From the NCBI GenBank assembly GCA_903924465.1, contig CAIYBN010000056.1, forward strand, positions 1,291 to 65,290: 64,000 bases of DNA, read 5' to 3'. The stretch comes from an uncultured Myxococcales bacterium. GTDB lineage: Bacteria; Myxococcota_A; UBA9042. Below are positions 32,287-41,949 of the stretch, in pieces. The translations under genes were made by a program, and so were the position numbers. Within the stretch, counting starts at the first letter, position 1. Each line of letters opens with the position of its first letter. Under the pieces are notes generated by a model. It was not told where the DNA came from, did not search any database, and saw nothing but the letters and a program-made list of their open reading frames with translations.

Positions 32287-32358
32287 GTTGCCCCCTCCAT
32301 CCCGTGCCTCCATAATCCAACTTGGCTGCGAAGACCAGTTCTTGGCGTCCGGAGGCCG

Positions 32359-33432
32359 ATGCCTTTTGATTTGGACCAAGCCGCAAACCGCCTGGGCCGT
32401 GTACACGGTCATGCCGTCGCATTTCGTCAGGCGTTGCTGGACGTGGCGTTCGCAAGTGGCTGTCCGATGCGTGAACAGGCCGTGGCGCTGGAGCATGGCG
32501 ACGCGGTGACGCTGCGGATGGCGTCGCGCGATCCTGCCATGGCGGCGTCCGTCACGCGGTTTGCCATCCTGGATCTCGATCCACCGGGGCACGCGGCGAC
32601 CTGGGCGCCGGAACTGGATAGTCTGGGAGGGCCTGGGCTCGCGCAGATCTGGGCGGTCGCGCTGCACACGCTCCTGGGCCAGACGGACGAGCGGCCGTGG
32701 GAGCTCACGTACACGCGCGGTCCCGCGCTGGGCGTGTCAGCGTACGTGCGCGATCGCCTCGATGCGCAAGCCTCGACGATCCAGTTGGTGCCGTGTCCAT
32801 CCGTGCCGTCGCACGGTCGGGCGATGGACGGCGTTGCGCTGACCCTGGAACCGACGCAGAACGTGTCGCGTCGTGCTGAATCCGGGTGGACGGTGTCGCT
32901 GACCGTCGCGGGAGAGGACGCGCTGGCGCGTCTGCGCTCATGGCTCCACGGCGTGTCCGGCGCGTGGACCCTGCATCAGCTCGACCTGCGCAGCCACGAT
33001 GCACTCACCGCGCTGTTGTGCGCCGATCGACCGCTTGAGCCGCCACCGGGGATCGCAATTCAGGCGTGGCCGGAGTCGCCACGGCTCTCCTTTCCAGTCA
33101 ACGAGGCGCTGATGGCGTGGCCGGAGACTTGGCTGCCTCGGCCGCTGGCGGTGCGCACGCTTGACGCCGGACTCTGGCTGGCTGGGCTGACATCAACCGT
33201 CGCAGAAGATGCAGCACTGCCGGAACGGGCCGGGGCGCTGGCTTTGACTTGGCAGGTCGAGTCGGTCGCGCGGGAGGTCAGCGCGCAAGTGCTGGTTGCG
33301 GTTGACGCTGCCGAATCCATCGGCCCGGTTGCGGCGGGTCTGGATGGGCCGATTTGGCGACTGCCTGGGGCGGGTGAACGGGCCTTGGCCGCGCGCGGAT
33401 TGGCGGCCAGACTCAGCGCGCGGTCGACGTAG
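32359..33432 (+). CDS. Hypothetical protein
   Basis: 357 aa ORF with a GGAGG ribosome-binding site 5 nt upstream of the ATG. Protein-like composition, no recognizable domain. Convergent with the giant gene. Confidence 0.45.
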   Translation: MPFDLDQAANRLGRVHGHAVAFRQALLDVAFASGCPMREQAVALEHGDAVTLRMASRDPAMAASVTRFAILDLDPPGHAATWAPELDSLGGPGLAQIWAVALHTLLGQTDERPWELTYTRGPALGVSAYVRDRLDAQASTIQLVPCPSVPSHGRAMDGVALTLEPTQNVSRRAESGWTVSLTVAGEDALARLRSWLHGVSGAWTLHQLDLRSHDALTALLCADRPLEPPPGIAIQAWPESPRLSFPVNEALMAWPETWLPRPLAVRTLDAGLWLAGLTSTVAEDAALPERAGALALTWQVESVAREVSAQVLVAVDAAESIGPVAAGLDGPIWRLPGAGERALAARGLAARLSARST

Positions 33433-36400
33433 CCATCGGCGCCGGTTCGACCGCGTCGGCAGACGTCACGATACTTGGCAGCGCCACTGGCTTGTGTTCC
33501 TGCGGATCGGGCGTCTTGTCGTGCGGCGCATAGCGAATCGCCAGAAAAGGCCGATACGCCGGCACGCCGAAACCCGGCCACAGGCCGAAACCGCTGCCCA
33601 AGCTGCCGTACAGGTCTTCGCCCAGCGGCCAGCCAACGGCCAGCGTCGCCTCCAGCTTCTCGTCCGCGCCGTTTTGGTACGCGTTCTTCAATGGCGTTTC
33701 GTGCACCAAGCTCGCGTCCAGCCACCAGCCGTCCGGCACCCATTTGCCCAGCCAGCTGTCTTGCGCCACTGCCGCATTGAGGCTCGCCGCGAGTGCAAAG
33801 CGCATCGCTGGCCCGTCGGTCAGGTTGAACAGCGTCTGGGTGCCTTGCGCCCGCACGCCGAAATTCGCTGCCACGCGCCATGGTCCCAAGGCCGTCGAGG
33901 CGACAGCCGTCGGCGTCGCCGTCATGCCTGGACGGCCCATGTACAGGTTCGGATCGCCGACCGGAATCGTCACCGGCACGACCAGCGCGAGCCCCATCTT
34001 CTGCTGCCGCTCCGCGAAGACCACGTACTTCAAGGCAACGGCGATATCGCCGATCGCCGTCGCGGTATCCAGCGGACCGGATTGCGGACCATAGAGCGAG
34101 GGCTGCGAACCCGTTTGCCAGATGGACACCGGCACAGTGACGCCCAGCGTCAGCCCTTGCCACAGGCGCGTCGCCAGCATGCCATCGGCCTGAAAACGCT
34201 GATCCACCAGGCCGCGCAGCGCACGCGTCTCCGTGCCCACCACCAGCGGCCGCCACGCGTACTGCGACTGCACACCAACCGAGAGGGCGTGCAGGTCCAG
34301 CTGCAGCGCAGAATCCACGCCCAGAATGCCGACGCCATCGACGTTCGACCGACCCGACGTCACATCCAGCGGCGTCAGCGCCGTCGCTGGCATCGCGACA
34401 CACAGGAGCAGAAGCACCGCGCGCGACCGCCGCCGCACCAGCAGCACAAGCCCCGCCAGCACGAGCAGCAGCGCACCTCCGGCCTGTGGCGCCCGCGTCG
34501 TCTGGCACGACAACGGCGTGGTGCCGCGCAGCCGACCGCCAAATTCCAGCACTTCCGAGTCATCGCGCGGATCCAGCGGATTCGTGTGCGTTTGCAGCAC
34601 CTCGATCGGATCGCTCAGTCCGCCAAAGTCGGTGTCCGGCAAGCGCGCATCGGTGTGGTATTTGAACACCTCGTCGCCGTCGGACAGCGTGTCGTTGTCG
34701 CTGTCCGTGTCGCGACAATCCGGCATGCCGTCGCCGTCTGAATCCACCAGCTTCTGCTGCAGTGAATTGTCGCCCGGCTTGATGCCCGATTCGTACGCAT
34801 CCGGCACTGTGTCGTTGTCGCTGTCCAGGTCCAGCGCGTCGATGATGCCGTCCTTGTCGGTATCCAGCGGATGGTTCGGGTCGACGACTTCGGTTGGATC
34901 CAGGATGCCATCGCCGTCGCTGTCGCGCTTCAGCGGATTGGTGCCCAGCAGCAGCTCCGTCTTGTTGTCCAGGCTGTCGCCGTCCAGATCACCGTCGATG
35001 TTGCCGTCGTCGGCCGCCACCAGCGGATTGGTCTCGCCGATGTCGACCTTGCCGTCGTGGGAGAAATCCTCGACGCCATCCGGCAGCCCGCCGCGATCGG
35101 TGTCGGCATTCGCCGGCCACGTCGTGTGCGTCGGGTCCTGATCCGGCAGGAACACGCCGGTCTTCAGGTTCGTGTCCGCCGGAAAGGCCAAGGTCGCGAG
35201 CGTCAGGCCCACCTCGGTGCCGTCATACAGGCCGTCGCCATCGCTGTCCTCGTCGTTCGCGGCATTCTGGCCATCGCCATCCAGATCCACGTACGGATTG
35301 CATTCGCGGCCATCGGGCACGCCATCGTCATCACTGTCCGCGTCATGCGGTCGCGAGCCGATCGTCGTCTCCATCGCATCGCACAAGCCATCGCCATCGC
35401 TGTCCGGCACCTTGGATTGCACTTCCGGGTCATTGGGATCGCCCTCGCCCATGTCCAGCCGACCGTTCAGGTTCGCATCCTCCCATCCGTCCGGCTGACC
35501 GTCGTGGTCGGTGTCCGCGGCCAGAGGCGACGTTCGCGTCGCCGGGTCCGAATCCGCATGAAAGCGCCCCAAGGACACGTCCGTCTGCGGATCCGCTTGC
35601 GTCACGCCGCGCTCCAGGCCATCGCCCAAGCCATCGTCGTCCGAGTCCGGATCCAGCGCGCCCGGCAGGCCGTCATGGTCAAAATCGAACGCCGCATTGG
35701 GTTCATCGCCATCCAGCACCCCATCGTCGTCGCTGTCGCGGTCGTGCGGATTGCTGCCCAGTCGCGCTTCTTCGGCATCGCACAGGCCATCGCCGTCCTG
35801 ATCCACGACAATCGTCTGGGTCAGCGCGGCGTTGGGATCGCCTTCGCCCGGATCGACGAAGCCGTTGGCATTCTGGTCCTCCAGGCCATCGCGCTGGCCA
35901 TCACCATCGGTATCCGCCAGCAAGGGCGACGTCGTCGTCCCTGGATCCGTGTCCGGCAAGAAGTTGAACGCCAACAGGTTTGTCGCCGCAACCGGCGCAC
36001 CCGCACCGCGTTCCAGGCCATCGGGCAGGCCGTCGTTGTCGGAATCGGCATCCGCGGCATTGCTCGCGCCATCCAGATCCGAGTCGCACGACATGTTCCA
36101 TTCCACGCCATCCGGCACACCGTCGTCATCGCTGTCGGCGTCGTCCTGCGCTGTGCCGAGCACTTTCTCCTCCGCATCGGGCACGCCGTCACCGTCCTGA
36201 TCGCCCAGGTACAGCGTCTCGCCAGCCAGGAACGGATCGCGCTCGCCCGCATCCACGCGACCGTTGTGGTTGACGTCCTCCGCACCATCGCGCTGGCCAT
36301 CGCCGTCGGTATCGGCCTTTTGCGGATTGGTCTGCGTCGTCGGATCGGCATCGGCCACAAACGCGCGCTTGGCCAAATTCGTGTCTGGCCCAACCGTGCT

Positions 36401-39400
36401 GAGCGTCTTGCCCGCTTCCGTACCGTCCAGAATCGCGTCGTTGTCGGAATCGGGATCCAGCGCGCCGATGAGCCCGTCGCCGTCCAGATCCAGCAACGAT
36501 TCCTCCCCGTCCAGCAAGCCGTCGTCATCGCTGTCGGTGTCCAGCGGATTGGTACCCGCCTTGATTTCCGCGCCATCGGCCAAACCGTCGTGATCGGTGT
36601 CATTGCTCAAGCGGTCCGTGTGGTATTTCGGCTCATCCGCGTCGAGCAGGCCATCGCCGTCACTGTCCAGGTCGCGAAAATCAGGGATGCCATCGCCGTC
36701 AGTGTCCACCGCCGGGGTCTTCCAATTGGCGTCACCCGCCTCGACCGCGTCCGGAAAGCCGTCGCCGTCGCTGTCCAGGTCCTTGGCATCGACCGTGCCG
36801 TCGCCATCGGTATCCACCACTTGACCCAGGTTCGATTCCTGCCCATCGGAAATCGTGTCGCCATCCGTGTCCGGATTCTTCGGATCCAGTCCCAGCTTGA
36901 TTTCCGTCTTGTTCTTGACGCCGTCGCCATCGTTGTCGCCGTTCGCGTCATCCGTCGGGTCCAGCGGATTGGTCAGGTCCGTCAGCACTTCCTTGCCATC
37001 CGGCACACCGCCGCCATCGCTGTCCGCCTTCGCCGCGTTGGTTTCGCCGGTCAACAACGTGACATCCCAATCCTGCTTGCCGTTCTTGTTCGTGTCCTCA
37101 AAGCCGTCATTCAAGCCGTCGCCGTCGGAGTCCTTGTTCAGCGGATTCGTCGTCGTGGTTGGATCGGCATCGCCCGCTTTGCCCGCCTCCACGCCGTCGC
37201 TGAGGCCGTCGTTGTCGGTATCCGCCTTCTGCGGATTGGTCTCCTTCGCGTCGACCTTGCCATTGTGGTTGAAATCCTCCTGACCATCCTGCAAGCCGTC
37301 GCCATCCGAGTCGGGATTCTTCGGGCTCGTCGTCGTGTTCGGATCGCTGTCGCCCTTCTTACCAGTTTCCAAACCGTCGAGCAGTCCATCGCCATCGGTG
37401 TCCGTCAGGAGCGGATTCGTGCCGTAGAAATTGACCTCCACGCCGTCGTTCAGACCGTCGCCGTCGCTGTCCGGATTCGCCGCACCTGTTTCGTTCAGCA
37501 CCTTGTCCCAAACGCCGTTGGCATTCTTGTCTTCCTGCGCGTCACTCAAGCCATCGCCGTCGCTGTCCTTCTTGCGCGGACTCGATTCGCCCGGATCGGT
37601 CAAGCCGTTGTGGTTCTTGTCCTCCACGCCGTCCAACAAGCCATCGCCGTCGGTGTCCTTGTCGTTGGGATTGCTGCCCGTTGGCGTCGCCGCCTGATAG
37701 ACGCCCAACACTTCCACCTTGTCGCTCGATCCATCTCCGTCGCTGTCCTTCTTGCGTGGATTGGTGCGATTGGCCTGCGCCTTGCCGGCCGCGTCTGGCC
37801 AAGTCTGGGCGTATTCCACGGCGTTGGAAAGGCCATCGCCGTCGTTGTCGCTTTGGCCATCGGCCGGATCCAGCGGATTGAGCGGCTTGCCATCGGCACC
37901 GTTGGCATTGTCGGCGTATTTGACCTCCCAGCCATCATCCAAGCCGTCGCCGTCCGTGTCGGCTTTGTTGGGATCGGTTTCACCCAGTTGCGGCTCCCAA
38001 GCGCCGTTGTGGTTCTTGTCCTCGTCGCTGTCGGCCAAGCCATCGCCATCGGTGTCCGCGTTGGCCGGATCGGTCGTCGACGTGGGCGCCAAGTCCGGCA
38101 AAAACGGCGGCGACAGCGTGTCGTCCACACCCTTTTGCGAGAGCGGCGCCGCTGCCACGCCCGTTTCCTGGCCATCACCCAACGCATCGCCATCGGTGGA
38201 GAACTTGAGCGGATTCGTGCCGCCCACCACAATCTGGCCGACGTTCTTGCCATCGACCACGTGGAACACGAGCACGCCGGTTTCCTTGCCGTCCAGGAGG
38301 CCGTCATCATCCGAGTCCGCGTCCAGCGGATTCGTGACGAGGTGGTTGTCCAGCGGAAAAACCTCCTGACCATCCGGAGCAAAGTCGCCATCGGTGTCCG
38401 GATCGGTGGGCGACGTCTTGCTCACCGTCAACTCATAGTGCGTCGACAGCCCGTCGCCATCCGGATCCGCACCCGTGTCGTCCGCCGCCTTGTTCGGATC
38501 CGTGCCATCGCTGATTTCCACCGCGTCGTACACACCGCCGCCATCGCTGTCGGCCTTGAGCGGATTGGTCTGGAACGTGCCAATCTCATCCGCGTCGCCC
38601 AAGGAATCCCAGTCGCTGTCCGTCAAAAGTGGATCCGTCTTGTAGGTCAGGACCTCATCACCATCTTTCAAGCCGTCGCCATCGGTGTCCGGCTTGAGCG
38701 GATCCGTCGTCGCGGCGATCTCAGCGTTGTCATCCAGCCCGTCGCCATCGGTGTCTTTCAACGTCGGGTCGGTCTTGTAGAGGTTGACCTCGTCGCCATC
38801 GGTCAGCGTGTCGCCATCGGTGTCCACCTTGAAACGATCACTCTTGTAGACCGTCACCTCCTGCCAGTCCGTCAACTTGTCGCCGTCGCTGTCTTTCTTG
38901 TCGTCATCCGGCTTGAGTGGATCGGTGTGGTCAATCAGCACTTCCTGACCGTCGTCGGAGAAGCCGCCATCGGTGTCGAGCTTGAGCGGATCGGTCTTCG
39001 ACACTTGCAATTCCAGGTTGTCCGGCAGGTTGTCGCCATCGGTGTCCGCGAGCGTCGGATTGGTGCCGTAGATCAGGACCTCGTCGCCATCGCTGAGGAA
39101 ATCGCCATCGGTATCGGCCAAGGTCGGCTGCGTCTTGGACTTGCCTGGCTGCGGAAACAGCTCGGCAAAATCGGACAAGCCATCGCCGTCGGTATCCTTC
39201 CGCGTCGGATCCGTGCCGGCAGCTTGCTCATTGGCATTGGACAGGCCATCGCCGTCCGGGTCACCGTTGCCGTTCTGCTTCAGGTCGCCAAAATAGCCGG
39301 CTTCCCAAGCGTCATCCAGGCCATCGCCATCGGTATCCACGGCATAAGCGGGACGTCCAACGGCGAAGCTCAGCACGAGAAGGCAAACGGCAAATCGACG

Positions 39401-39409
39401 AGCGTTCAT
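33413..39409 (-). CDS. Giant secreted protein made of tandem thrombospondin-type-3-like Ca-binding repeats (DxDxDGxxDxxE), continuous in frame with a C-terminal beta-rich module
   Basis: Signal peptide MNARRFAVCLLVLSFAVGRPAYA. More than 60 Asp-rich DTDGDGLxDGxE repeats over about 1,650 aa. Then a MYXO-CTERM-like Cys/Gly/hydrophobic/RRRSR segment, followed directly, with no stop codon, by a signal-peptide-like stretch and a roughly 350-aa beta-rich domain. The start was chosen at MNARRF inside the longer ORF 33413-39694. Confidence 0.8.
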   Translation of the reverse strand: MNARRFAVCLLVLSFAVGRPAYAVDTDGDGLDDAWEAGYFGDLKQNGNGDPDGDGLSNANEQAAGTDPTRKDTDGDGLSDFAELFPQPGKSKTQPTLADTDGDFLSDGDEVLIYGTNPTLADTDGDNLPDNLELQVSKTDPLKLDTDGGFSDDGQEVLIDHTDPLKPDDDKKDSDGDKLTDWQEVTVYKSDRFKVDTDGDTLTDGDEVNLYKTDPTLKDTDGDGLDDNAEIAATTDPLKPDTDGDGLKDGDEVLTYKTDPLLTDSDWDSLGDADEIGTFQTNPLKADSDGGGVYDAVEISDGTDPNKAADDTGADPDGDGLSTHYELTVSKTSPTDPDTDGDFAPDGQEVFPLDNHLVTNPLDADSDDDGLLDGKETGVLVFHVVDGKNVGQIVVGGTNPLKFSTDGDALGDGQETGVAAAPLSQKGVDDTLSPPFLPDLAPTSTTDPANADTDGDGLADSDEDKNHNGAWEPQLGETDPNKADTDGDGLDDGWEVKYADNANGADGKPLNPLDPADGQSDNDGDGLSNAVEYAQTWPDAAGKAQANRTNPRKKDSDGDGSSDKVEVLGVYQAATPTGSNPNDKDTDGDGLLDGVEDKNHNGLTDPGESSPRKKDSDGDGLSDAQEDKNANGVWDKVLNETGAANPDSDGDGLNDGVEVNFYGTNPLLTDTDGDGLLDGLETGKKGDSDPNTTTSPKNPDSDGDGLQDGQEDFNHNGKVDAKETNPQKADTDNDGLSDGVEAGKAGDADPTTTTNPLNKDSDGDGLNDGFEDTNKNGKQDWDVTLLTGETNAAKADSDGGGVPDGKEVLTDLTNPLDPTDDANGDNDGDGVKNKTEIKLGLDPKNPDTDGDTISDGQESNLGQVVDTDGDGTVDAKDLDSDGDGFPDAVEAGDANWKTPAVDTDGDGIPDFRDLDSDGDGLLDADEPKYHTDRLSNDTDHDGLADGAEIKAGTNPLDTDSDDDGLLDGEESLLDLDGDGLIGALDPDSDNDAILDGTEAGKTLSTVGPDTNLAKRAFVADADPTTQTNPQKADTDGDGQRDGAEDVNHNGRVDAGERDPFLAGETLYLGDQDGDGVPDAEEKVLGTAQDDADSDDDGVPDGVEWNMSCDSDLDGASNAADADSDNDGLPDGLERGAGAPVAATNLLAFNFLPDTDPGTTTSPLLADTDGDGQRDGLEDQNANGFVDPGEGDPNAALTQTIVVDQDGDGLCDAEEARLGSNPHDRDSDDDGVLDGDEPNAAFDFDHDGLPGALDPDSDDDGLGDGLERGVTQADPQTDVSLGRFHADSDPATRTSPLAADTDHDGQPDGWEDANLNGRLDMGEGDPNDPEVQSKVPDSDGDGLCDAMETTIGSRPHDADSDDDGVPDGRECNPYVDLDGDGQNAANDEDSDGDGLYDGTEVGLTLATLAFPADTNLKTGVFLPDQDPTHTTWPANADTDRGGLPDGVEDFSHDGKVDIGETNPLVAADDGNIDGDLDGDSLDNKTELLLGTNPLKRDSDGDGILDPTEVVDPNHPLDTDKDGIIDALDLDSDNDTVPDAYESGIKPGDNSLQQKLVDSDGDGMPDCRDTDSDNDTLSDGDEVFKYHTDARLPDTDFGGLSDPIEVLQTHTNPLDPRDDSEVLEFGGRLRGTTPLSCQTTRAPQAGGALLLVLAGLVLLVRRRSRAVLLLLCVAMPATALTPLDVTSGRSNVDGVGILGVDSALQLDLHALSVGVQSQYAWRPLVVGTETRALRGLVDQRFQADGMLATRLWQGLTLGVTVPVSIWQTGSQPSLYGPQSGPLDTATAIGDIAVALKYVVFAERQQKMGLALVVPVTIPVGDPNLYMGRPGMTATPTAVASTALGPWRVAANFGVRAQGTQTLFNLTDGPAMRFALAASLNAAVAQDSWLGKWVPDGWWLDASLVHETPLKNAYQNGADEKLEATLAVGWPLGEDLYGSLGSGFGLWPGFGVPAYRPFLAIRYAPHDKTPDPQEHKPVALPSIVTSADAVEPAPMATSTAR

Positions 39410-39657
39410 GGAACTCCGCGCGGCGAATGACGGCGTCGCCGCGGTCCCCAGATTGGAGCATGAACGGTGATTTTCGGCTACACATGCTGACCCAAGACGA
39501 ACATCAAATTTGGTCGGTTGAACCTGTTCCATGTCGGATTGGGACCGCGAGCGTGTTCCGAAGGTGACACGCCGCGGTAACGGCGGCTGTGATGCTCGAA
39601 CTCGGTCAGCGTGCGTGGCGCGAACCAACGTGTCACTGGGCTGGCGCAGGGTTCCGA

Positions 39658-41949
39658 TCAGTCGCCAAAGCGCGCGCGTGCCTCGTCTTTCCACTCATCC
39701 GGCCAGTAGTAGAATCCTTCGCAGGCGATCGAGAAGAAGCAGGTCTCGCACGCCTTTTCGTGACGTCGCCGCGATTGCAGGTAGTCGAACAGGTTCACGT
39801 CGTCCATGGTCACAAACACCATGTCACGTTCCATCTTGCCGATGTCGCTGAGGCAATAGTCCTCGTACCCCGGCATGTAGCACAGCGGCAGGTTGATCAC
39901 CTGGAACTTGATGCGATCGCCAAAATCGTCAATCAGCTTCATCACCAGCGGCGCCACTTCCGCCGGATCCGGCTGGCACTCCGCGCTGGCTTTGCCAAAC
40001 GGCGTCAGGAACTGCACGTTGCACAGCTTCACGCCCAGCTTCACCAGCAGCTCGCCGTACTCCATCAGCACCGGCGAATTGACCTTGGTCAGCGTCACAT
40101 TCACGCCAAAATCGATGCCCAGCTTCTCGCACAGCGGCCGGCAATTCCGGATGCCATCGACGGTCTGGCGAAACGCGCCTTTGGCCTGGACATTCTCCTC
40201 GTGCACCGCCTCGTTCGGCCCGTGCAGGGAAATCAGCAGGCTGGTGATGCCCGACTTGACGATCTTCTCGGCGTTGCGCGGCAGGCTCATCATCCGGCCG
40301 TTGCTGGTCAGGTTGATCGCCTGGAACTGCAAGTCCTTGGCCGCGCTGATGAGCTTCTGCAAGTTCGGATTGGTCGTCGGCTCGCCGCCGTCAAAATCGC
40401 ACAGGTCGTAGCCCTTGGCACGCCGGTCCTTCAGGAATGCGATTTGCTGGTCCAGCTCGCCGTGCCAGTCGCTGCGGTTGCCCGTGGCGCAGAACACGCA
40501 CTGGTTGTTGCAGACATACGTCGTGTTCATGATGACTTTGCGCGGCTTCCACGCCGACGCCTTGGTCTCCAGCACGCGCTTGGCCGCCCACAGCTCGCCC
40601 GGCGTCCAATCCGGCCCGGTCAGCACCGGCTTGCCCTGGAACAGCGGGCCGATATCGCGGTCCTCGCGCGTCGTCCACAGCTTGTCGTTGGTCGCGGTCT
40701 TGTGCAGCTCCGTGCCCTTGATCGGCGTCGCAAACTGCACCAGCGGCTGAGCGTCAAAGTCTTCGCACAGCTGCCACGCGGTCTTCAGCGTGTTCAGGAT
40801 TTCGACCCGCGTCTCCGTCGGCTGGCCGATCATCCAGTGCACCACCAAGCGCAGCCCATGCTGCTGGCACCACTGCGCCACGCGCTGCGTCGCCGCCAGA
40901 TCGAACTTCTTGCCGATCACGTCATTGGCGATGCGGTCGTTGGCCGACTCTGCGGAAATCGACAGCACCGGCACGCGCTGCGCCATGCGGATGATCTGGC
41001 TCTCCGTCACGCGATCCGCGCGCATGCCGTTGGGAAAATCCAGGCCGAGGTCGAATTCTTCCGCGACATCCAGCAGCGCGTCAAAATGGCTGGTCGTCAC
41101 GTTGACCAGTTCATCCAGCACCACCCAGCGGTCGATGCCATAGGTCGTCTTGAGCAACTCCGCGTGCTTGCGCAGCCACTCCTTGCCGTGGCGCCGGTAT
41201 GGCTTGCCCTCCAAGCCAGCGCGCTGCCACGGGTTGGACGTGCAGAAATTGCAGCGGTAGACGCAGCCGCGCGACGTCTTGACGGCGATGACCGGCGGCG
41301 CCGAGGAGAAGATCTCGTTCTTGTGCCGGCTGGCCGAGACGCGGCCCATGAACTTCTGGAACGCTGCGATGTCGACCAGGTCGTACGCCGGCAGCGGCAA
41401 CGCGTCCAAATCCTCGACCTGAGGCGCGCCGCGGGTGATGCGATCCACCGGCTTGCCGCCCGCCGCCAGCGTCGCAACCAGCTGCGTCAACTGCCCTTCT
41501 GCCTCGTACTGCTGGCCCCACGGAATGCCGACTTCGTCGAGATCGCGCTCATCCCATTCGATGAAATGCATCCCGCCGACGTCGCAATCCGCCAGCACCA
41601 CTGGCACGTGCGGCCAGCGCTCCGCCAGGTGCGCCACGAGCCGCTTGAGCTCCGCGCTCGCCGCCCGCGCGCGCTGCCACGGCGAATTGCCCAGCACCAC
41701 GACGTCCGGCGCTTGTTGTGGCAGCCGGCCGATCAGCGTCGAGATCGGCACGCCGAGGCGCAGGAATTCCTTGTTCTCGTGGATGAGGTTCGACGTCGGC
41801 AGGCAAAACGCGTCGAGCACCGTCACCGCATGACCGTCCACGCGCAGCTGCGCGGCGGCCTGCCAGAGCCCCAGGCTGGCAAAAGTCGGATAGTCGATGT
41901 ACGCCGCATGCAGCAAAAGGGGCGGCTGAATCAACAGGACGTGGGCCAA
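39658..41949 (-). CDS. Fusion protein: B12-binding (class B) radical SAM domain + radical SAM/SPASM-type domain
   Basis: 763 aa. The N-terminal half has a B12-binding-like Rossmann region followed by CVYRCNFC (CxxxCxxC). The C-terminal half has a second CNNQCVFC motif, GGEPT, a PLCYM motif, and a C-terminal Cys cluster CETCFFSIACEG (Cx2Cx5CxG, SPASM/twitch-like). Confidence 0.85.
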   Translation of the reverse strand: MAHVLLIQPPLLLHAAYIDYPTFASLGLWQAAAQLRVDGHAVTVLDAFCLPTSNLIHENKEFLRLGVPISTLIGRLPQQAPDVVVLGNSPWQRARAASAELKRLVAHLAERWPHVPVVLADCDVGGMHFIEWDERDLDEVGIPWGQQYEAEGQLTQLVATLAAGGKPVDRITRGAPQVEDLDALPLPAYDLVDIAAFQKFMGRVSASRHKNEIFSSAPPVIAVKTSRGCVYRCNFCTSNPWQRAGLEGKPYRRHGKEWLRKHAELLKTTYGIDRWVVLDELVNVTTSHFDALLDVAEEFDLGLDFPNGMRADRVTESQIIRMAQRVPVLSISAESANDRIANDVIGKKFDLAATQRVAQWCQQHGLRLVVHWMIGQPTETRVEILNTLKTAWQLCEDFDAQPLVQFATPIKGTELHKTATNDKLWTTREDRDIGPLFQGKPVLTGPDWTPGELWAAKRVLETKASAWKPRKVIMNTTYVCNNQCVFCATGNRSDWHGELDQQIAFLKDRRAKGYDLCDFDGGEPTTNPNLQKLISAAKDLQFQAINLTSNGRMMSLPRNAEKIVKSGITSLLISLHGPNEAVHEENVQAKGAFRQTVDGIRNCRPLCEKLGIDFGVNVTLTKVNSPVLMEYGELLVKLGVKLCNVQFLTPFGKASAECQPDPAEVAPLVMKLIDDFGDRIKFQVINLPLCYMPGYEDYCLSDIGKMERDMVFVTMDDVNLFDYLQSRRRHEKACETCFFSIACEGFYYWPDEWKDEARARFGD

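Follow-up and report, generated by a model that had tools for sequence, protein, structure and literature searches.

The question raised by this locus is whether a giant gene, in which a motif resembling a sorting tag runs without a stop codon into the apparent signal peptide of another protein, is one gene or two. The gene lies on the minus strand of a 64,000-nucleotide stretch of DNA (the window; contig CAIYBN010000056.1, positions 1,291 to 65,290, of assembly GCA_903924465.1) from an uncultured Myxococcales bacterium. A reading made from the letters of the DNA alone, here called the sequence-only reading, had noticed that no stop codon separates a MYXO-CTERM-like motif from what follows it, and had offered two genes joined by a lost or misassembled stop codon, a real fusion, and a helical hairpin within one protein as explanations. 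The missing stop is borne out by the translation: one minus-strand open reading frame (ORF) reads through. On the evidence of related sequences the ORF is one real gene, conserved as such, of a Myxococcota bacterium, and an artefact is refuted. The gene probably fuses a MYXO-CTERM-tagged surface protein to a TraB-like barrel, with a precursor that would be cleaved as an envelope polyprotein, and its architecture is likely to correspond, in a single chain, to an operon pair of the TraA/TraB type.

A single frame through the junction

The mechanical ORF extends from 33413 to 39694, and the actual start is the ATG at 39409, as backed by the alignment of orthologues from residue 1. The gene (33413-39409, minus strand, as are all features below unless stated) encodes a precursor of 1,998 amino acids, with its stop codon at 33413-33415, and the identical protein is called as a single gene, on a contig of 89.8 kb, in the NCBI/ENA data (P0163). 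It begins with a Sec-type signal peptide (39341-39409; MNARRFAVCLLVLSFAVGRPAYA, with predicted cleavage before VD), which was assigned by inspection, has a conserved position and contains no lipobox. This is followed by a passenger of about 1,610 amino acids (34508-39340) made of bacterial thrombospondin type-3 (TSP3) repeats of the calcium-binding, Asp-rich type; TSP3_bac (PF18884, E 2.4e-54) is the sole Pfam family detected in it. By its sequence, such a passenger may be adhesin-like or stalk-like. The stretch from 36001 to 38000, in which AT skew (-0.30) and GC skew (-0.13) are strongly negative compared with the rest of the window, coincides with the minus-strand coding of these Asp-rich repeats.

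The junction reads ...RGTTPLS-C-QTTRAPQAGG-ALLLVLAGLVLLV-RRRSR-AVLLLLCVAMPATA-LTPLDVTSGR... in one frame, with no stop between the tag-like and the signal-like segment; the peptide spanning the uncut junction of the precursor would be ...AVLLLLCVAMPATALTPLDVTSGR. Its first element (34475-34507) is the sorting-tag signature, composed of Cys1635, whose codon is 34505-34507, and QTTRAPQAGG. It is followed by the hydrophobic helix ALLLVLAGLVLLV (34436-34474), a putative stop-transfer or sorting-tag helix, by RRRSR (34421-34435), the predicted cytoplasmic loop, and by a second hydrophobic segment ending in A-T-A (34379-34420), the predicted internal signal peptide with h-region AVLLLLCVAM and c-region PATA. 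The first residue beyond A-T-A is L1678 (codon 34376-34378), which places the predicted signal peptidase I site between the two. All these elements fall within the interval 34300-34520 to which the sequence-only reading had drawn attention, and the sequence it quoted, ...GTTPLSCQTTRAPQAGGALLLVLAGLVLLVRRRSRAVLLLLCVAMPATALTPLDVTSGR..., is present as written. It had shown the RRRSR cluster twice; the translation holds it once, as the basic end of the tag-like motif and also as the basic start (n-region) of the internal signal peptide.

In a scan of orthologues that used one genome per species, the same locus was found with 78-82% identity in five Myxococcales metagenome-assembled genomes (MAGs; loci L004, L005, L006, L007 and L009). 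Their shared downstream genes, i.e. an ORF of 373 amino acids, dtd, an alpha/beta-hydrolase, a CN-hydrolase and enolase, make them positional orthologues. More distant loci, about 53% identical, occur in the MAG of L008, together with the metagenome contig L001, and in a Lake Baikal MAG (L011, protein P0005). The MAG of L008 is labelled Enterobacteriaceae and carries the same gene as contig L001. The continuous ORF is thus held by seven other assemblies, five syntenic at about 80% and two at about 53%, and by eight including the window. The full frame of about 2,000 amino acids is present in L004, L005, L007, L008, L009 and L011; L006 and L001 end at a contig edge, yet the junction is still read through in frame.

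The way in which these sequences differ is informative. Compared with the orthologues of about 80% identity, the passenger is 85-87% and the barrel 84-86% identical, while identity falls to 48-62% in the junction and to 43-52% in the N-terminal signal peptide. The length of the junction varies from 42 to 48 amino acids among orthologues, with changes in frame only, and what is conserved in it is a physico-chemical pattern of Cys, GG, helix, RRR, h-region and P-A-x-A. Cys1635 is retained in all orthologues and the RRR cluster is found in every one of them. Judged by these substitution patterns, the junction evolves like a removable topogenic sequence and unlike a structural part of the mature protein. 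The arrangement is not due to chance: eight assemblies share it, as do dozens of distant members of the family.

These comparisons bear on two ways in which the barrel could nevertheless be a gene of its own. It is exceedingly improbable that a stop codon was lost through an error of sequencing or assembly, so that an adjacent MYXO-CTERM gene and signal-peptide-bearing barrel gene now read as one. A split layout does exist in nature, as traA and traB are separate ORFs with a 4-nucleotide overlap (PMC3325183), the window has a GTG directly before RRRSR, and in a contig 80% identical to the window (L003) that codon is an ATG preceded by unrelated sequence. However, the open frame is kept in seven assemblies from different samples, the junction carries insertions and deletions that are in frame, dozens of distant relatives are fused alike, and L003 looks chimeric. 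The loss or misassembly of a stop codon is refuted by this evidence, and so is the reading as two genes, by the very comparison of orthologues that the sequence-only reading had proposed, while the option of a real fusion gains support from the conserved continuous ORF. It is also very unlikely, though less so than the artefact, that the barrel is made mainly from an internal start at the GTG (34436-34438), so that one frame would functionally hold two genes. The sequence-only reading had taken this GTG for a start; the codon is indeed there, before RRRSR, but a separate gene start is unsupported. L003 with ATG and L005 with TTG at the equivalent position would agree with internal initiation, as the window does, but the CTC of L004 and L009, the CTG of L006, the GGC of L007 and the GGG of L008 are unable to start translation, and with a codon as varied as this internal initiation there is not a conserved feature. 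Nothing like a ribosome-binding sequence stands out shortly before the codon, the sole GGAGG being about 40 nucleotides off, and ribosomes finishing the passenger must continue into the barrel anyway.

Contig L003 (protein P0001) was considered as a split version of the gene and rejected. Its first 415 nucleotides or so have a visibly lower GC content and encode, on the opposite strand, an unrelated Thr/Asn/Ser-rich repeat protein, and it becomes similar to the window from a point within the first junction helix onwards. Because this upstream stretch makes the contig look chimeric or rearranged, it is treated as uninformative. Positions 1-460 could belong to a chimeric scaffold, or could be a real rearrangement giving a standalone barrel gene.

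The C-terminal barrel and its relatives

The region beyond the junction had been described by the sequence-only reading as a beta-rich module of roughly 350 amino acids resembling an outer-membrane barrel, and this description holds. An AlphaFold2 model of the C-terminal module, built on an alignment of 84 sequences, has 12 long strands, with a mean predicted local distance difference test score (pLDDT) of 85, above 90 over the barrel, and a predicted template modelling score of 0.78. Two short helices of lower confidence (model residues 17-32 and 36-44) correspond to the two hydrophobic segments of the junction. The barrel itself takes up 285 amino acids (33524-34378). In Foldseek outer-membrane barrels are the best solved matches, with FapF (5o68; E 5e-10, target TM-score 0.69) followed by COG4313 (4rl8; E 2e-8), both at probability 1.00 and with a sequence identity of 11-15%; generic porins, FadL and autotransporter barrels give far weaker structural matches.

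At the sequence level the Pfam match to PF13557 is marginal (22.6 bits against a cut-off of 22), and the N-terminal half of the NCBIfam TraB model (NF033763) is matched over TraB positions 26-221 with E 8.8e-6. The same TraB model is matched by 83 of the 84 aligned relatives (best E 5e-103), most of which also have OmpA-type domains, and fused relatives span positions 5-498 of its 522. Going by model and profiles together, the C-terminal module is a TraB-family outer-membrane barrel with the PF13557/COG4313/FapF fold. It is not TraB itself, because it scores 24 bits where the model cut-off is 700 and because it has no OmpA domain: neither Pfam nor NCBIfam detected one (PF00691) in the window protein. 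What follows the barrel is a Pro-rich tail of merely 36 amino acids (33416-33523) with an AlphaFold2 pLDDT of 42-58. It is weakly conserved (42-61% identity among close orthologues) and stands where TraB and most relatives have TSP3 repeats and an OmpA domain.

A first protein search returned 4 matches, and the family became visible when 1.84 billion representatives were searched exhaustively with a profile, which gave 2,577 relatives. The analysis of the family covered 159 proteins, i.e. the best 150 of these relatives and cluster members. The barrel lies at least 100 amino acids from the N-terminus in 64 of the 159. All 64 share the same cassette, consisting of a Cys, a Gly/Ser-rich stretch, a hydrophobic helix, an R/K cluster, an h-region and a small-x-small site. 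The Cys upstream of the first helix (64 of 64; 59 found by regular expression and five by eye) usually stands in the context GGGC-S/A. Fused proteins reach about 3,700 amino acids (P0162, 3,722), and several further gene calls are truncated and begin inside the motif. Their passengers vary and include TSP3 repeats, Cys-rich acidic repeats (TIGR02232) and, by source annotation of P0160, isopeptide-forming fimbrial-type domains. The source names, where given, are Myxococcales, Kofleriaceae and Archangiaceae, and some fused members have already been labelled "MYXO-CTERM domain-containing" or "TIGR03382 family" by annotation pipelines; the nearest 50% cluster, P0007, is annotated at source as a TIGR03382-family protein.

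In standalone relatives, of about 450-650 amino acids, the N-terminal signal peptide is an ordinary one and ends at the position equivalent to the junction site. By a simple rule, a (-3,-1) site after the h-region is present in 70 of 70 fused and 80 of 81 standalone proteins, the commonest site being AxA before the cut and Q after it (AxA/Q; 42 of the 70 and 39 of the 81). The same position and the same preference imply that the barrel has retained its own signal peptide in the fusion, as the second junction segment.

Fused and standalone states appear to be interleaved among barrel segments: the nearest neighbour of a fused barrel is fused in 35 cases and standalone in 28, and that of a standalone barrel is standalone in 47 and fused in 27. 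This is only a hint, because identities are about 25% and, for the standalone proteins, the comparison extends to the barrel and not to the genes upstream. At least 150 amino acids follow the barrel in 51 of 63 fused members, which is consistent with OmpA; almost nothing follows it in ten, and the window protein is of this type. The window clade, P0005 and P0007 form a clade without OmpA and with a TSP3 passenger. The nearest standalone relative is P0004, which has OmpA.

Some members of the family deserve separate mention. The Baikal-deep-G138 MAG holds both the fused P0005 without OmpA (L011, 4838-10882) and the standalone paralogue P0004 (L002, 9597-11827; equal to L010), which has barrel, TSP3 repeats and OmpA, the two barrels being about 50% identical. 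The P0004 gene overlaps by 10 nucleotides an upstream ORF of 137 amino acids, which is Cys-rich, has a weak match to Dicty_CTDC and lacks a tag. In the Kofleriaceae proteins P0160 and P0162 the Arg cluster is followed by an insert of about 40 amino acids (RRRRRGNRGDLAAPAANDKSLAFNPPRVAARDFSRMAVAAVAGG...) before the internal signal peptide, so that the cytoplasmic loop can be long.

Predicted processing and comparison with known systems

The sequence-only reading had called the end of the TSP3 region a MYXO-CTERM-type anchor, which is essentially right: the invariant Cys, the hydrophobic helix and the Arg cluster are present in the window protein and in every orthologue, with a borderline match to the hidden Markov models (HMMs). 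TIGR03901 aligns with residues 1635-1663, from the Cys to the last Arg, and reaches 13.7 bits on the whole protein and 19.6 bits on the isolated 63-amino-acid piece (cut-off 20), and TIGR03382 scores 16.3 bits on the same piece (cut-off 15.85). A companion feature of such tags, an N-terminal signal peptide on the same protein, is also present by inspection. The tag is internal and not at the extreme C-terminus, with 335 residues beyond the Arg cluster. A pattern scan found no further MYXO-CTERM-like motifs in the window.

We propose that the N-terminal signal peptide would route the TSP3 passenger through Sec until the first junction helix halts the transfer, leaving RRRSR in the cytoplasm, and that the second hydrophobic segment would then restart translocation as an internal signal peptide. 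Signal peptidase I would cleave after A-T-A and free the barrel to the periplasm, for insertion into the outer membrane by the beta-barrel assembly machinery. An outer-membrane fold that directly follows A-x-A without a linker must be released, with signal peptidase I as the obvious candidate. The passenger, held by the hairpin, would be modified at Cys1635, undergo cleavage by the myxosortase MrtX and then reach the cell surface. The upstream product would in this way be an ordinary MYXO-CTERM substrate with a short extra hairpin arm, ending as a lipid-anchored TSP3 adhesin. The two products would be made at 1:1 and would probably cooperate, the barrel being the membrane partner of an adhesin seated on it as in TraA/TraB. 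Polyprotein processing of the fused members is, on their sequences, well motivated but unproven.

Two other fates of the precursor have to be weighed against double cleavage, and both appear unlikely. The somewhat less improbable of the two is a single cut, in which signal peptidase would free the barrel while the TSP3 region would be an inner-membrane-anchored periplasmic protein and not a myxosortase substrate. The borderline HMM scores and the atypical signature would suit such a protein, yet the Cys and the Gly-rich stretch before the helix are conserved in the orthologues and in the fused family, P0007 carries the TIGR03382-family annotation and other fused relatives that of MYXO-CTERM, and internal sorting tags are reported to be functional (PMC11980579). 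The other fate, slightly more doubtful still, is that of an uncleaved polypeptide, in which both the TSP3 region and the beta-rich module would stay tethered by a permanent inner-membrane hairpin and no part would be set free. This agrees with the two helices modelled at the junction by AlphaFold2, but the module has an outer-membrane barrel fold and no linker long enough to span the periplasm after the second segment. Moreover, the signal-peptidase-type site recurs in 70 of 70 fused relatives with the AxA/Q preference of the standalone ones, the Cys is invariably retained and the junction matches the N-terminal signal peptide in its rate of change. Of the helical hairpin suggested by the sequence-only reading one part therefore stands, as it fits the precursor, with a helix modelled at both positions; as a permanent anchor it does not, since the hairpin is most likely cut out.

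Several observations weigh against the doubly cleaved fusion that we prefer. The MYXO-CTERM scores of the window protein are borderline, its signature "PLSCQTT" is unlike the usual GC-rich motif, and the first junction helix has only about 13-16 hydrophobic residues. No candidate for mrtX was noticed among the window genes examined, although mrtX was not searched for. Both cuts are deduced from sequence rules, in the window protein as in all fused relatives. The partnership of passenger and barrel is extrapolated from TraA/TraB, where the passenger differs and OmpA is present. Finally, the fused share of about 40-45% among the best 150 relatives is probably inflated, because the search profile contained junction columns.

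The kind of fusion described here has been noted once before, for MXAN_5598 of Myxococcus xanthus. This protein combines an N-terminal region that is large and adhesin-like with an internal MYXO-CTERM, an outer-membrane barrel and OmpA, is called "atypical", and may derive from the fusion of TraA-like and TraB-like genes (Guo et al., mBio 2025, PMC11980579). The same paper accepts rare internal MYXO-CTERM cases and gives a model for MYXO-CTERM substrates in which Cys modification and MrtX cleavage lead to surface display dependent on the type II secretion system; in E. coli, MrtX reportedly suffices. MXAN_5598 is also listed among the proteins of M. xanthus vesicle and membrane fractions (PMC4158809). 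The likeness to the window protein, by description only, lies in the adhesin-like region, internal tag and outer-membrane barrel in one ORF. In distinction to MXAN_5598, which ends in OmpA and is encoded in the cell-division (dcw) cluster, the window protein ends in its disordered tail and has a minimal five-residue loop. A cell-division context was looked for among the neighbours of the window gene and is absent. The second, internal signal peptide found in the window protein goes unmentioned for MXAN_5598 in the accessible part of the paper (PMC11980579).

TraA and TraB, the pair responsible for outer-membrane exchange in M. xanthus, form 1:1 complexes in which TraB is composed of signal peptide, barrel, TSP3 repeats and OmpA, and AlphaFold puts the base of TraA on the TraB barrel (PMC12045341). 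As in the window, a MYXO-CTERM surface protein is encoded directly before a signal-peptide-bearing outer-membrane barrel protein, but by two genes in place of one. TraA has a PA14-like variable domain and a Cys-rich stalk where the window passenger has TSP3 repeats, and TraB has TSP3 repeats and OmpA beyond its barrel, while the window barrel has neither. The best structural likeness of the barrel is to the 12-stranded outer-membrane channels FapF and COG4313 (PF13557); FapF secretes amyloid subunits, and the window gene has no fap operon context.

[quoted passage not shown] In these proteins a helix threading the barrel pore links the two halves, whereas in the window protein the link consists of a stop-transfer helix followed by an Arg loop and then a signal peptide, which implies a separate export of the halves. 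Membrane polyproteins cleaved at internal signal peptides are represented by the flavivirus glycoprotein precursors and by the Bradyrhizobium cytochrome b/c1 protein FbcH. In bunyavirus glycoprotein precursors a stop-transfer helix is reported to be followed by an internal signal sequence, with signal peptidase giving two 1:1 products (PMC7926653). Neither the viral proteins nor FbcH are related to the window protein, in which a second, sortase-like protease would be expected to act on the upstream half.

What appears to be new with respect to the earlier case is the putative internal signal peptide with its conserved predicted cleavage site, the apparent spread of fused proteins through the TraB family, and the presumed clade with a TSP3 passenger and no OmpA. 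There is an even chance, in our estimate, that the cassette of tag helix, Arg loop and internal signal peptide is not a rarity but a common and repeatedly evolved strategy of the Myxococcota, in which a class of envelope polyproteins cut by two membrane proteases, signal peptidase I and myxosortase, would supply a surface adhesin and its outer-membrane partner at strictly 1:1, and fused and split states would interconvert by one stop codon at a 4-nucleotide overlap. The fused proteins are natural evidence for dedicated 1:1 pairs of a MYXO-CTERM protein and a TraB-like barrel beyond the kin recognition of TraA/TraB. They may also serve as a test bed, as one construct would report cleavage by signal peptidase and by myxosortase and the processing of an internal tag, and the OmpA-less clade raises the question whether the barrel alone suffices as a partner.

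Annotation and neighbouring genes

The locus should be annotated as one gene, neither to be split nor "repaired", nor named CglD. The CglD model (NF033765) gives 596 bits against a cut-off of 400, so that automated pipelines could misname the protein, the threshold being formally passed. This identity was rejected: the score is summed across 13 TSP3 stretches, the best of which covers profile positions 99-423 of 1124 only, and the signal peptide has no lipobox. MtsD was rejected likewise, since its match comes solely through the TSP3 repeats.

The neighbours of the gene are enolase, CN-hydrolase, alpha/beta-hydrolase, dtd, radical SAM and tetratricopeptide repeat genes. Directly upstream (39658-41949, minus strand) is encoded a protein of 763 amino acids with a radical SAM domain at residues 474-606 or thereabouts only and a long N-terminal part without a Pfam match. 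From the other side the ORF of about 373 amino acids (about 32300-33432, plus strand), which has no Pfam match, converges on the giant gene, with a 3' overlap of 20 nucleotides (33413-33432). It is syntenic in all related loci, yet only 57-64% identical, compared with 85-93% for its neighbours.

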